From a virus (Duplodnaviria > Heunggongvirae > Uroviricota > Caudoviricetes): DNA of 42,872 nucleotides. Where the stretch lies: positions 1 to 42,872 of the IMG/VR virus record IMGVR_UViG_2718217859_000008; one strand, written 5' to 3'. The position numbers and the translations under genes are program-made. Below are positions 2,769-38,900 of this stretch, one piece after another. The notes below the pieces were generated by a model. It searched no databases. It was not told the DNA's origin and saw only the letters and a list, made by a program, of their open reading frames with translations. The first letter of the stretch is position 1; the number at the start of each line of letters is the position of its first letter.

Positions 2769-3560
2769 TTAACCGTTAACGTTCCTTATCTCCACAGGGT
2801 TATAATTCGTCGGTAAGCCGGATACATCCGCAACCATGACCTGGGTTTTCATTGAGCCAACCCAGCCTCCTGTCGGTGATATATCGAGATAAACACCTGT
2901 CGGTATTATGGATATATAGAGATTACCGTTACCGTCAAGATGACAACACTCATTATAGTAATATCCACCCTGTAAGGATGACTCAATCCAGCCCCTGCCC
3001 AGAGGCATTGATAATGCTGTGTTATTGACATCATCGGAAACATGCCCGACATTACTCCAGTTACTACCGCTCTCATGCCCTGAATGGTTTGGATATTGCG
3101 GTTCAAGCCATTTCACATCCCGTAATTTCAGAAAATACCACCCGGAATCAAATATAATTCCTCCTGAACCGTCAAACAGTTGCATACCGTATGAACTTCG
3201 CTCCGGCGGTATCCACTTGTCAAAAATATAATACTGAACCGTGCCAATATTTATATTCCACCATTTAAACACGTCTATACTTGTCACCGATATATATGTT
3301 CCGGGATTAACAAAATCAGGGGACAGCTTATTGACCCCGGTTTTTTGTGTCAGCCTCGAATTATTTGTATTCATCTTCAGAAACAATAAAGGACTGTTCA
3401 TTCCGGTTGTTATCAGACTGATTGCGCTCGTCGTGTTCCCGCCGGAGATAAAATGACCATTACTGAACTGACCGGCACTTCGCAAAACATAATTCACATC
3501 TTCCGCATCTGCCACTGTCAGTCCATAGTCATTAATTAGCTGAATGCCATAACCGCTCAT
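2769..3560 (-). CDS. hypothetical protein (263 aa), Gly/Asn/Tyr-rich, AT-richer than flanks
   Basis: ATG at 3558-3560 overlaps the stop of the upstream ORF (ATGA); the track start at 3578 is TTG; no recognised family. Confidence 0.5.
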   Translation of the reverse strand: MSGYGIQLINDYGLTVADAEDVNYVLRSAGQFSNGHFISGGNTTSAISLITTGMNSPLLFLKMNTNNSRLTQKTGVNKLSPDFVNPGTYISVTSIDVFKWWNINIGTVQYYIFDKWIPPERSSYGMQLFDGSGGIIFDSGWYFLKLRDVKWLEPQYPNHSGHESGSNWSNVGHVSDDVNNTALSMPLGRGWIESSLQGGYYYNECCHLDGNGNLYISIIPTGVYLDISPTGGWVGSMKTQVMVADVSGLPTNYNPVEIRNVNG

Positions 3561-30377: not shown

Positions 30378-30533
30378 TTACTCCTCAGGTTCGTAAGCTG
30401 TGAAGACAGCGACCTCCGTCTGGCCGGTTCGGATTCGTACCTCGCAGAGGTCTTTCCTCGTTACCAGTGCCGTCACTATAACGGTTAAACAGATGACGAT
30501 CAGGGCGATTAACATCGCCTTTTGCTGCTTCAT
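30378..30533 (-). CDS. hok: Hok-family type I toxin (51 aa)
   Basis: MKQQKAMLIALIVICLTVIVTALVTRKDLCEVRIRTGQTEVAVFTAYEPEE matches HokD/RelF as recalled; AAGGAG 9 nt upstream of the ATG at 30531-30533. Confidence 0.9.
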   Translation of the reverse strand: MKQQKAMLIALIVICLTVIVTALVTRKDLCEVRIRTGQTEVAVFTAYEPEE

Positions 30534-30726
30534 AGCCTGCTTCTCCTTGCCTTTCGGCACGTAAGAGGCTAACCTACGTGTGCAAGTCATAGATATGGCC
30601 TCAGATTAATGTTAAGCGTCTTGCAGGACGCGTAATGTTAACTGGGGCTTTTCTCTGTCTGCCTTACGGCGGCATGCCCGAGGCAGATAGCCTCAAGCAC
30701 CCGCAGCAATTCTACTTAACTCTCGC

Positions 30727-35222: not shown

Positions 35223-35648
35223 TTAGTGCATCACCACGGCATTTCCTGCCGGGCCGCCGCGATTCATCTGGTCATACAAAACAACCGCTGACGCAACAAA
35301 ATCGTCGACATCTTTCACCAACCGATCCCTCCGTTCGACAATCTCACGGTAATACTCAGAACTGTGGCTGCGCATACGGGCCACCAGCAAAGGCGGCATC
35401 GCCTTTTCGATCGCCGGTAACAGAGCCTGCATTTTTTCAACAGCATCAGGGGTGTCTTTATCCAGCCAACGGAAAATTTTCTGGGTATTACGGGCCAGGG
35501 CTTCCGGATGGCTGTCGTCGTACAGTTCCGGGAACGTCATTCCCAGTTCGAAATAAGTCCGGGCTATTTCAGCTGCAGGAACTTTCTCACCATCAGGGTA
35601 TGCCCAGGCATTCATCGCCATGCGGATATGCTCATGTTTGATTTTCAT
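35223..35648 (-). CDS. ydaT: YdaT-like protein (CII-like / reported toxin)
   Basis: 141 aa; N-terminus MKIKHEHI as in Rac YdaT (from memory); directly 3' of the Cro-like gene. Confidence 0.65.
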   Translation of the reverse strand: MKIKHEHIRMAMNAWAYPDGEKVPAAEIARTYFELGMTFPELYDDSHPEALARNTQKIFRWLDKDTPDAVEKMQALLPAIEKAMPPLLVARMRSHSSEYYREIVERRDRLVKDVDDFVASAVVLYDQMNRGGPAGNAVVMH

Positions 35649-35955
35649 GAATCATTTGCCTCTTGATGCTTCGGGTATGATCGTTTTCGTCATTTGGTTG
35701 CTTCATCGACATATTCTGCGAATAACATGACGAGCGTCGTAAGTATGTCCAATCAACATCAGGACGAAGTTCTTCACACAGGACACCACCTTTTGTTGCT
35801 CGTTCAATCGCAGGACATCTCTCAGCAGGCAACTGACGTACACCTTTGATCCATTGATTTACGCTTGGAGGAGATACACCTAAAAGCCTAGCCATTGCTG
35901 ATTGCCCACCGACAACAGCACAAGCTCGTTTGAATGAATAGTTATCTTTTTTCAT
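35632..35955 (-). CDS. ydaS: Cro-like HTH regulator YdaS-like
   Basis: MKKDNYSFKRACAVVGGQSAMARLLGVSPPSVNQWIKGVRQLP matches YdaS as recalled; divergent from the repressor gene. Confidence 0.7.
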   Translation of the reverse strand: MKKDNYSFKRACAVVGGQSAMARLLGVSPPSVNQWIKGVRQLPAERCPAIERATKGGVLCEELRPDVDWTYLRRSSCYSQNMSMKQPNDENDHTRSIKRQMIHENQT

Positions 35956-35982
35956 CGAATGAACTCCAAAAAACACACAATA

Positions 35983-36079: not shown

Positions 36080-36556
36080 ATGCTTAGTGGTAAAGACTTA
36101 GGCCGAGCGATAGAGCAGGCCATTAACAAAAAAATTGCATCAGGAGCCGTCAAATCAAAGGCGGAAATCGCACGTCATTTCAAAGTCCAACCACCATCAA
36201 TCCATGACTGGATTAAGAAAGGTTCGATAAGTAAAGACAAACTTCCAGAACTATGGCGTTTCTTTTCTGATGTGGTTGGTCCAGAGCATTGGGGGCTTAA
36301 CGAATACCCCATACCAACCCCATCCACTTCAGATACAAAAAGTGAACTTTTAGACATAAACAGCCTTTATCAAGCCGCCTCTGATGAAAAAAGAGCAATT
36401 GTGGCTTTCCTCTTATCTGGAAATGCTACGGAGCCTAGTTGGGTTGATCATGACGTTCGCGCCTACATTGCCGCAATGGAAATGAAGGTAGCTAACTATC
36501 TGAAAAATCAAGAATCAAAACGGAAAAGCCAGAACATCACCAAGACAGGAACTTAA
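36080..36556 (+). CDS. prophage repressor (CI/RacR-like HTH, 158 aa, no S24 peptidase domain)
   Basis: HTH (KAEIARHFKVQPPSIHDWIKKG); flanked on both sides by the same operator sequence; AGGAG upstream of the ATG; no Ser/Lys autocleavage module evident. Confidence 0.6.
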   Translation: MLSGKDLGRAIEQAINKKIASGAVKSKAEIARHFKVQPPSIHDWIKKGSISKDKLPELWRFFSDVVGPEHWGLNEYPIPTPSTSDTKSELLDINSLYQAASDEKRAIVAFLLSGNATEPSWVDHDVRAYIAAMEMKVANYLKNQESKRKSQNITKTGT

Positions 36557-36650: not shown

Positions 36651-36693
36651 TTAGGCATAGCCTATTGACAAGCAATTAGGCATTTCCTATAGT
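36651..36693 (+). promoter_or_regulatory. OL-like operators with early-left promoter
   Basis: 36651-36669 is the exact reverse complement of 36008-36026 (19 bp); TTGACA (36665-36670) - 17 nt - TATAGT (36688-36693), with a second operator-like site in the spacer. Confidence 0.65.
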
Positions 36694-37494: not shown

Positions 37495-37941
37495 CTAACC
37501 ACAAAGAAATCGCATCAATTTGGATTTTGTGGGCAACTTCTCTTGTTGTTCGATGGAGACGCCTATTTTGATCTGTGTTTTTAAGATCGCAATATCTTTA
37601 AGTGATGACCAAATATGATCATCTGTTTTTTCCAGAGTTTTTAACTGAATTTTCAATTCCGAATCAGAATATTTTTCTGCATCATCAAAAAGCTGCAAAT
37701 ATTCTGCGGATTTTCTCATGGCATTACCTGACTTTTGTCCGAATCCATAAATCGTTTGGACGGTTGCGATCACAACAATAAAAACGCCAGAAATTTCCGG
37801 AATGAATCCGCCAATGACAGATGAACCGAGGATAATACTCACTACTGAGAGAAGTTTATCGAGACGACCAGTCGCTACAGAAAACAGTTGCTCAAGAAAA
37901 TAGCCATATAAAATTCTGTCAAGAATATCATCCCGGTCCAT
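37495..37941 (-). CDS. two-TM membrane protein (148 aa), antisense to the early-left operon
   Basis: ATG at 37939-37941 with AGGTGA 7 nt upstream; two adjacent hydrophobic helices then a charged helical tail; resembles SLATT/Abi-type 2TM effectors by architecture only. Confidence 0.6.
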   Translation of the reverse strand: MDRDDILDRILYGYFLEQLFSVATGRLDKLLSVVSIILGSSVIGGFIPEISGVFIVVIATVQTIYGFGQKSGNAMRKSAEYLQLFDDAEKYSDSELKIQLKTLEKTDDHIWSSLKDIAILKTQIKIGVSIEQQEKLPTKSKLMRFLCG

Positions 37942-38013: not shown

Positions 38014-38271
38014 CAGATTTCCTGTCGTTGGGGAATGACGGAAACCACCTCGCCTGACGTGGTTAAAAGCAGGCACACAACACGAAAGCGCACGGCGAAG
38101 TTCGTCTCACTGTACGGTGTCGTTAAATTTAATTCGACCGTGCGCTTCCGGTTGTGGCAATCCGCGAAATGGCGCGGCGGTAAGTATGGCGAGGCTATCC
38201 TTTCCTCGAGATAACACCGGGTTGCCAGGTTGACCATACGCCTGAGTGACAACCCTGCTGCAACAACCCAT

Positions 38272-38328
38272 GTTGATTACCTTTTGGCGGGTATCCGTTT
38301 TGCTTTCCCCGTGATACCCGCCCTTTTT
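38272..38328 (+). ncRNA. dicF: DicF-like sRNA with intrinsic terminator
   Basis: TTTTGGCGGGTATCCGTTTTGCTTTCCCCGTGATACCCGCCCTTTTT resembles E. coli DicF (UUUGGCGGUAUCAGUUUUACUCCGUGACUGCUCUGCCGCCCUUUUU) as recalled; 10-bp terminator stem 38286-38322 plus T5; directly upstream of dicB; 5' end approximate. Confidence 0.6.
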
Positions 38329-38511
38329 AAAGTGAATTTTGTGATGCGGTGAATGCGGCTCAGCGCACGCGGAACAGTTAAAAAGGCCAGTTGACTTCCG
38401 TATTGGTTCTTATGGGTGGGTTCTCTGTATCCGGCGTTAATTATTAACTGGTTAACGTCACCTGGAGGCACCAGGCACCGCATCACAAAATTCATTGTTG
38501 AGGACGCGATA

Positions 38512-38694
38512 ATGGAAACGTTATTACCAAACGTCAATACGTCTGAAGGTTGTTTTGAAATTGGTGTCAGAATCAGTAATCCTGTATTTACTGAAGATGC
38601 CATTAATAAGAGAAAACACGAACGGGAGCTATTAAATCAAATATGCATTGTTTCAATGCTGGCCCGTTTACGCCTGATGCAAAAAGGACGCTGA
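38512..38694 (+). CDS. dicB: cell division inhibitor DicB
   Basis: 60 aa METLLPNVNTSEGCFEIGVRISNPVFTEDAINKRKHERELLNQICIVSMLARLRLMQKGR near-identical to K-12 DicB as recalled; GAGGA 8 nt upstream. Confidence 0.85.
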   Translation: METLLPNVNTSEGCFEIGVRISNPVFTEDAINKRKHERELLNQICIVSMLARLRLMQKGR

Positions 38695-38696
38695 CA

Positions 38697-38900
38697 ATGA
38701 ATACAACATTTGCACTCGTTCTGACAGTTCATCTTGTTTCCGGCGAATCTCTTGAGCTGGTGACAGGCTTATACGGTTCAATGAAAGAATGCATAGCTGC
38801 CGCAGATGAACAGAAAATTCCCGGTAACTGTTATCCGGTCGATAAAGTTATTCGCATGGATAATAACGAAATCCCGGCAGGACTTAAAACAGCACCGTAA
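38697..38900 (+). CDS. ydfD: YdfD-like small protein (67 aa)
   Basis: MNTTFALVLTVHLVSGESLELVTGLYGSMKEC; AAGGA upstream; immediately follows dicB as in Qin. Confidence 0.6.
   Translation: MNTTFALVLTVHLVSGESLELVTGLYGSMKECIAAADEQKIPGNCYPVDKVIRMDNNEIPAGLKTAP

Follow-up and report, generated by a model that had tools for sequence, protein, structure and literature searches.

The stretch of DNA analysed here (the window) is the whole of virus record IMGVR_UViG_2718217859_000008 from a member of the Caudoviricetes, 42,872 nucleotides in length. We consider it probable that the element upstream of its dicB gene is a divergent allele of the dicF locus, combining a terminator of the early-left (pL) operon with a small RNA (sRNA) of about 52 nt, of the Hfq type and with changed target specificity. 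A sequence-only reading had placed a DicF-like element at 38272-38328, upstream of dicB, and this placement holds. A hairpin at 38286-38322 followed by five U residues occupies the exact slot of dicF in Escherichia coli K-12, between flanks that are 88-97% identical to those of K-12. Its parts are the following.

38265-38285, plus strand: variable 5′ module of type 5B (AACCCATGTTGATTACCTTTT), in place of the K-12 module with the xylR-pairing seed UUUCUGGUGACGUUU
38277-38328, plus strand: predicted mature sRNA of about 52 nt, its putative 5′ end uncertain by several nt, its 3′ end being the U tract
38286-38322, plus strand: terminator hairpin of type HB in the predicted fold, with a 12-bp stem, one bulged U and the 12-nt U/C-rich loop UUUUGCUUUCCC
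38323-38328, plus strand: C (38323) and U5 tract (38324-38328), forming the intrinsic terminator tail CCCUUUUUAAAG, the same as in K-12 DicF

The loop lies between the 5′ strand GGCGGGUAUCCG and the 3′ strand CG(U)GAUACCCGCC, and ACCUUUU stands immediately 5′ of the hairpin. The 57-nt stretch 38272-38328 folded at -19.7 kcal/mol, compared with -8.2 ± 2.2 kcal/mol for dinucleotide shuffles (n = 200, z = -5.2); none of the 200 shuffles folded as well. The predicted hairpin has the Rho-independent terminator of DicF, GGCGG...CCGCC with a U tract as the 3′ end. The mature 5′ end would lie near 38277, judging from alignment with the 5′ end that RNase E generates in K-12 and from the sequence GA/UUA, which fits the RN/WUU motif. 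A start at 38272, as the sequence-only reading had it, is equally possible.

For comparison we aligned the window with the Qin region of K-12 (L001, dicF annotated at 3383-3435). Identity was 88.5% in the 130 nt upstream of the RNA, 96.7% in the 60 nt downstream, 96% in the 3′ part of the leader that follows, and 89.9% in dicB; in the RNA body it was 59.5% (44 of 74 columns, with four indels). The two bodies have UUUGGCGG-UAUC-G-UUUU, CCGUGA and CCGCCCUUUUU in common. Gone from the window body are most of the K-12 5′ tail UUUCUGGUGACG, of which about UUACCUUUU is left as a 5′ seed, and the 3′-strand segment CUGCUCUG. The 3′ strand has been rewritten and now pairs perfectly with the 5′ strand. 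Where K-12 DicF has its ftsZ/pykA-pairing loop and 3′ strand, the window has a stabler stem and the UUUUGCUUUCCC loop instead. The earlier remark that the 5′ part is unlike K-12 was correct but understated, as the ftsZ-pairing loop and the 3′ strand have been replaced too. Differences of this kind, judged from the sequences, are those that alter target specificity, as had been suggested.

The setting and frame are those of K-12 DicF (Qin cryptic prophage, RF00039). Both elements follow ydfA/B/C-like genes and precede dicB by about 175-185 nt, and both have the GGCGG...CCGCC stem base, the U-rich lead-in, the CCCUUUUUAAAG tail and a 21-bp leader stem downstream. Neither has a promoter of its own, and the window RNA presumably arises, like that of K-12, from termination and RNase III/E processing. 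They differ in that the 5′ seed is essentially deleted from the window, and in that the window has a near-perfect 12-bp stem whereas the K-12 stem is interrupted.

The Rfam DicF model (RF00039) had no match at its gathering score (48 bits) in the whole window and nothing at E ≤ 10 in 801 nt of it; on 71 nt alone it gave 9.8 bits (E = 5.3). K-12 dicF, as the positive control, scored 76.7 bits. This covariance score had been named beforehand as the refuting test, and for the window allele it is poor: the element is outside the Rfam DicF family as currently modelled. The scores were graded by hairpin class (described below), from 76.7 bits for HA (K-12) through 43.5 for HD and about 34 for HC to none, or the 9.8 bits of the window, for HB. 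We built a covariance model, R1, from six HC and HD sequences only, without flanks; its E-values are rough, as calibration was short. In the window, R1 had a sole significant match, 38279-38328, at 30.6 bits (E = 2.6e-7), the next best being at 11.7 bits (E = 0.54). It gave 37.1 bits (E = 1.7e-9) for K-12 DicF, 42.8 bits (E = 2.2e-11) for the allele of the Shiga toxin (Stx) phage POCJ13, 30.8 bits (E = 2.1e-7) for each of two copies in phage vB_Apl-pPE4, and 18.2 bits (E = 0.0036) for the HE class. Because a model made from HC and HD finds all of these, the alleles form one family joined through intermediates, and the window element can be taken, on sequence grounds, as a true but divergent dicF homologue. 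Two other constructions were set aside. RNAalifold on a MAFFT alignment of 18 alleles suffered from register shifts between classes, which left 7 pairs and one compensatory column, and per-allele folds and R1 were used instead. A model that included K-12-type rows (A3) was dropped because MAFFT put their 3′ strand one column off.

Target pairing was scored with an accessibility-aware duplex score against a background of 88 shuffled leaders. With K-12 DicF as the control, the published sites were recovered, in agreement with PMC5069750 and PMC5861419: ftsZ at -29..-1 (DicF nt 26-53), xylR at +9..+20 (nt 6-15), pykA at -19..+1 (nt 26-43) and manX at +34..+50 in the coding region (nt 37-54). For xylR, z was -3.7 for K-12 DicF and +1.45 for the window allele (totals -12.7 and -2.0); for pykA, -3.5 and +0.06 (-12.3 and -5.1); for manX, -2.3 and -0.6 (-10.0 and -6.5); and for ftsZ, -0.9 and -0.27. 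The window allele was thus at background for all four. The sequence-only reading had carried repression of ftsZ and other targets over from K-12 and had proposed target prediction against the ftsZ, xylR and pykA leaders; in silico, this repression is not retained. Both target-recognition segments of K-12 DicF have been replaced, so the window allele most likely would not repress ftsZ, xylR, pykA or manX through the known pairings.

Relatives were gathered by a flank-anchored pattern scan of IMG/VR (120 loci) and by DicB-anchored retrieval (87 loci), giving 204 loci in all with 40 distinct RNA bodies. Across them we found at least five alternative 5′ modules and at least six hairpin/loop modules. 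The 5′ variable insert, of 2-13 nt, lies between conserved (C)TGTT(G/A) and AC(C/G)TTT.

5′ module 5A (K-12): CUCUGUUAUCAAUUUUCUGGUGACG before ...UUUGGCGG
5′ module 5B (window): CCAUGUUGAUUACC before ...UUUGGCGG
5′ module 5C: ...GAUUUGUACC before ...UUUGGCGG
5′ module 5D: ...GAGGCUUGUGUGAGACC before ...UUUGGCGG
5′ module 5E: ...GAGUAUUGACC before ...UUUGGCGG
Hairpin module HA: K-12
Hairpin module HB: the window class, with loop core GYUUUYCCC and variable U runs
Hairpin module HC: GGCGGCAUCAG-UUUCAUUGCUGG-CUGAUGUCCGCC
Hairpin module HD: IMG/VR and E. albertii loci (with the 5A tail)
Hairpin module HE: a short hairpin with UUC ahead of GGCGG
Hairpin module HF: Stx phage POCJ13

Only AC(C/G)UUU(U)GGCGG...CCGCC(C)UUUUU was invariant across alleles, the exceptions being rare single-base variants and the short HE class. 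Every allele folded to a stable terminal hairpin (-10.7 to -21.0 kcal/mol), all had G-UUU on the 5′ side of the loop, and the upper stem showed a compensatory change, U-A in HB versus C-G in HC and HD. Nucleotide diversity (pi) was computed on 65 distinct DicB-anchored regions, a sample enriched for DicB close to that of the window, so that its frequencies are not unbiased. It was maximal on the RNA body (0.30-0.39 at 38272-38311), with a second hot spot in an indel-rich part of the leader (0.25-0.47 at 38372-38411). Elsewhere it was mostly 0.07-0.17 in the non-coding block and mostly 0.02-0.06 in dicB.

The modules were found in many combinations. Module 5B was combined with HB or HC; HC with 5B, 5C and 5D, and with 5E in one locus (L087); and 5A with HA, HD and HE. 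The exact DicB protein of the window stood behind HA (2 loci), HB (13) and HC (3), and the leader segment AAAAGGCCAGTTGACTTCCGTATTGGTTC behind 5A/HA (4), 5B/HB (27), 5B/HC (8) and 5D/HC (1). The dicF locus is therefore a mosaic whose modules recombine independently of the leader and of DicB. As a test of regulation in cis we looked for co-variation of the sRNA allele with the variable leader segment or with DicB, and there was none. A single 96-kb contig can carry two alleles (L008, 5A/HD, and L030, an HA variant), and in the strains nearest to the window only one of the four dicF-region loci is of the window type.

These combinations suggest a wider interpretation, which we hold tentatively, as somewhat short of an even bet: the slot that dicF occupies in lambdoid prophages may hold a cassette of recombining modules, with a fixed Hfq/terminator frame ahead of a division inhibitor (dicB or kil) and at least five interchangeable 5′ tails and at least six loops. 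If so, prophages would differ in the regulators, each with its own targets, that they bring into the host, the window allele would be a seed swap of natural origin in which the scaffold is separated from the ftsZ function, and most non-K-12 alleles would go unseen by Rfam-based annotation and be counted as dicF loss. The cassette stands ahead of kil rather than dicB in some phages. In POCJ13 (Shigella; L215:1500-1600) the order is N, two open reading frames (ORFs), the sRNA GGCGGACAUCGG-UUUGCCGAUUG-CUGAUGUCCGCC, and kil; the dicF slot thus exists in N-antiterminated pL operons of Stx phages, coupled to another division inhibitor. In vB_Apl-pPE4 (PP818812.1; L214:2527-2693) an HB-type cassette upstream of kil is duplicated in tandem; the two units, of about 93 nt, are identical, and both include the hairpin and the U tract. 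The label 'Actinobacillus phage' of vB_Apl-pPE4 is odd, its early region being typical of E. coli lambdoid prophages.

The most serious alternative is that the window element is a terminator or attenuator only, which stops early-left transcription before dicB and releases an RNA without function in trans, its variable parts being unconstrained. We regard this as unlikely, though well worth weighing. Several observations speak for it and against an active RNA. Invariance is limited to the base of the stem, the U-rich sequence leading into it and the terminal U tract. Even HB alleles differ in the loop: the length of the U run and the C/U positions vary and only the GYUUUYCCC core is kept, which is weaker conservation than seeds usually show. 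At -19.7 kcal/mol, against -15.9 kcal/mol for K-12, the hairpin is the stabler of the two, so that less RNA is free to pair. No predicted target rose above background. Within the window, the top matches (-22.7 and -27.5), the trivial antisense strand aside, were no better than those of shuffled seeds (means -20.6 and -26.5). None of 28 translation-initiation regions of the host, taken from the dcw, min, zipA, man, xyl and pyk neighbourhoods, stood out. The best was a 12-bp duplex with three G-U pairs between GUUGAUUACCUUU and the zipA 5′ untranslated region (-75..-62); its total of -9.1 is at about the 5th percentile of background, as expected by chance from 28 tests, and the pairing needs a 5′ end at or upstream of 38272, so it is a weak lead only. 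Furthermore, relaxed constraint would equally give high diversity in the body against constrained flanks, and compensatory stem changes are expected in any terminator.

Other observations speak against termination alone and favour an active RNA. In K-12 the homologue has been proven to be a regulator that depends on Hfq (PMC5069750). HB and HC alleles share one and the same 5B tail, a single variant aside among the sampled loci, though its neighbours vary. Neither a 12-nt loop with a conserved GYUUUYCCC core nor a conserved U-rich lead-in is required of a simple terminator, and a tandem duplication such as that in vB_Apl-pPE4 would add little to termination. The shuffling of modules points the same way, as does the processing context of K-12, which is retained on both sides of the window RNA: the upstream precursor block, the terminator tail and the 21-bp leader stem, as judged from alignment and predicted folds.

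The dicBp polycistron is the sole source of DicF in K-12 (10.1101/2023.04.14.536235). Its 3′ end is formed by Rho-independent termination, processing by RNase III yields a 190-nt species and processing by RNase E the 53-nt species, and no transcripts running on into dicB have been detected (10.1101/2023.04.14.536235; PMC5069750). If the window element is likewise a terminator and an sRNA together, transcripts would start from a pL/dicBp-like promoter (36665-36693) on relief of repression and would pass the ydfA/B/C-like genes into a conserved non-coding block of about 390 nt. Most would end at the hairpin and U5 tract (38286-38328), attenuating the expression of dicB and ydfD. The frame of the RNA (U-rich stretch, GGCGG...CCGCC hairpin and U tail) is predicted to be kept and fits the Hfq-binding module, which has been described as made up of these three elements (Ishikawa et al. 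2012, as cited in PMC4104026). The analysis shows the anatomy and homology of the element, the mosaic of its alleles and its loss of complementarity; we infer that the RNA would also be expressed, processed and bound by Hfq and may act in trans. Any action in trans would be on other targets than those of K-12 DicF, with the U/C-rich loop or the short 5′ tail as the pairing segment.

It is improbable that the window RNA is a functional equivalent of canonical DicF that still represses ftsZ translation, for example by a kissing contact between its loop and the Shine-Dalgarno sequence, and blocks division jointly with DicB. Its synteny with dicB is retained, and the loop, with GUUUU and a C-rich run and with the G-UUU common to all alleles, could form about 6 bp with the Shine-Dalgarno region of ftsZ (CGGAGAGA with GCUUUCCC, duplex -8.0). 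However, the extended 3′-strand complementarity (ACUGCUCUGCCGCC with GGCGACAGGCA) is gone, and the accessibility-aware score for ftsZ (-5.8/-5.9) equals the background mean. The ensemble cofold binding free energy to the ftsZ leader (-60..+30), set against 200 shuffles, was -16.1 kcal/mol for K-12 DicF (z = -3.84, with 1 of 200 shuffles as good) but only -3.1 kcal/mol for the 57-nt form of the window RNA (z = +0.69, with 75% of the shuffled leaders as good) and -1.9 kcal/mol for the 52-nt form (z = +0.45). Other HB alleles and the 5B-HC allele were equally weak (-3.2 to -3.4).

It is very improbable indeed that the stretch codes for protein, as a small ORF at 38230-38352 (plus strand) or as overlapping minus-strand ORFs: ORFs of 40 aa (TTG start, plus strand) and of 108 and 54 aa (minus strand) can be drawn mechanically and the annotation of vB_Apl-pPE4 has a minus-strand hypothetical protein over the homologous spot, but the indels between alleles are not multiples of three while the flanks are conserved, RefSeq has no coding sequence there in close relatives or in K-12, and the element can be taken as non-coding because allele body lengths of 42, 50 and 57-70 nt break any reading frame.

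The distribution of the alleles was surveyed with queries of 67-69 nt against 5,426 complete E. coli genomes. The K-12-type body had a match in 4,010 of them (74%), with about all records at 90% identity or more. The window-type body had a match in 204 (3.8%); 156 records reached 90% identity, none was at 100%, and the best was at 98.6%. For the 5B-HC body, 264 genomes had a match, partly overlapping the window-type set, and 113 records reached 90% identity. The exact body of the window was found in two IMG/VR contigs, and a window-type copy in only 1 of 50,697 deposited phage genomes. Outside Escherichia and Shigella we found no dicB relatives beyond one contig. This 22.9-kb contig (JAGZPX010000007.1, L131), from a metagenome-assembled genome labelled Veillonella parvula, has DicB at 88% identity and a K-12-type dicF variant, and is almost certainly a mis-binned Escherichia prophage contig.

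DicF, which blocks cell division in K-12, is a textbook prophage sRNA. Whether a genome has it is usually decided from near-identity or with the Rfam model, and hence is misjudged for alleles at the same locus that fail Rfam. Earlier surveys took in only dicF copies more than 99% identical (PMC5069750). At least one genome scored as a dicF loss in a survey of 27 genomes (Skippington & Ragan 2012, PMC3318445), that of E. coli SE11, has a 5B-HC allele (L216, NC_011415.1:1781401-1781467), with the ydfA-ydfB-...-dicB-DUF1482 surroundings intact. Outside K-12, RefSeq genomes lack an annotated feature even at copies that are 100% identical to K-12 dicF, so that database annotation is uninformative on the presence of DicF in E. 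coli genomes. For the same reason we rejected the missing RefSeq annotation in close relatives of the window as a sign of an unrecognised element. A wider seed alignment would be needed, both for the Rfam DicF model and for annotation pipelines. If expressed, such alleles would test how much of DicF toxicity and physiology rests on ftsZ pairing, and would show prophages rewiring host post-transcriptional control by seed swaps on a fixed scaffold.

In the searchable literature we found no description of a fixed scaffold with variable recognition ends for the dicF locus, and a preprint on Pas sRNAs (Zhu, Shabalina & Storz 2026) does not cover this locus. There is a precedent for the theme in the AsxR/AgvB 'anti-sRNA' group of lambdoid prophages of enterohaemorrhagic E. 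coli (Tree et al. 2014, PMC4104026). These Hfq-type RNAs are likewise short (51-60 nt), lie at a prophage site that is conserved and, like the alleles of the dicF locus, have a conserved 3′ scaffold and variable target-recognition ends among related copies (PMC4104026). Unlike them, they occupy a moron site downstream of PR′ and have their own promoters, and the two groups are unrelated in sequence. Variation at the dicF locus affects the 5′ tail as well as the terminator loop, and the RNA there comes from an operon transcript by processing. The sRNAs that Tree et al. 2014 detected by Hfq-CRAC (cross-linking and analysis of cDNA) were considered as experimental support and rejected: EcOnc20 (Sp5) lies between cI and N, upstream of N, and EcOnc33 (Sp6) lies in the late region, so neither is at the dicF slot.

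The rest of the early-left operon region of the window, which is of the lambdoid kind, comprises the following features.

35632-35976, minus strand: Cro/YdaS-like gene
36080-36556: repressor-like gene
36665-36693, plus strand: promoter-like site TTGACA-17-TATAGT (11 of 12 consensus matches), between the repressor gene and the ydfA-like gene
37495-37941, minus strand: 148-aa ORF (phrog_6315, function unknown, no Pfam match), between the ydfC-like gene and the sRNA block
38119-38264, plus strand: conserved non-coding block ahead of the sRNA, homologous to the 5′ part of the 190-nt DicF precursor that RNase III generates in K-12
38331-38496, plus strand: structured leader between the sRNA and dicB, with a predicted 21-bp stem (38331-38351/38476-38496) closing a multibranch domain
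38512-38694, plus strand: dicB, cell-division inhibitor of 60 aa (Pfam PF05358, 1.5e-37)
38697-38900, plus strand: ydfD-like gene (DUF1482; Pfam PF07358, 2.7e-20)

Of the two genes named earlier, dicB and a ydfD-like gene do stand downstream of the element in the operon. The strong promoter-like site at 36665-36693 probably corresponds to dicBp/pL and would give rise to the precursor transcript; a consensus scan found no promoter-like site beside the sRNA hairpin. It is followed by a DUF1391/ydfA-like gene and by ydfB-like and ydfC-like ORFs. The precursor transcript would be antisense to the 148-aa ORF, which is on the opposite strand. The content of 37495-37941 differs in K-12 and in the closest relative (L002), and the place looks like a moron insertion point. 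About 570 nt between this ORF and dicB are non-coding, and the sRNA sits in the conserved block of about 390 nt, 185 nt 5′ of dicB.

The 21-bp leader stem ends 15 nt 5′ of the dicB start codon, just ahead of the ribosome-binding site. In the predicted fold the leader is a likely RNase III substrate, and it may possibly act as a control element for dicB translation. Its part 38335-38489 matched the model of the STnc100/PasD prophage RNAs (Rfam STnc100, RF02076) at 33.5 bits, below the gathering score of 47. This weak match was present in the equivalent spacer after every dicF allele examined, K-12 included, and the leader is a distant STnc100 relative. The window DicB ends in ...LMQKGR and lacks the final two residues of the 62-aa K-12 protein (...LMPKGCAQ); the C-terminus has many variants across relatives. 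The ydfD-like gene is followed by an 824-aa exonuclease gene, xis and int.

Two further RNA matches were found elsewhere in the window. At 25992-26166 on the minus strand there is a full-length STnc100 copy (93.7 bits, gathering score 47) that has a terminator of its own and no DicF-like hairpin ahead of it. A sok antitoxin RNA (Rfam RF01794) lies at 30528-30702 on the minus strand (110.6 bits), which implies a hok/sok-type toxin-antitoxin locus in the window.

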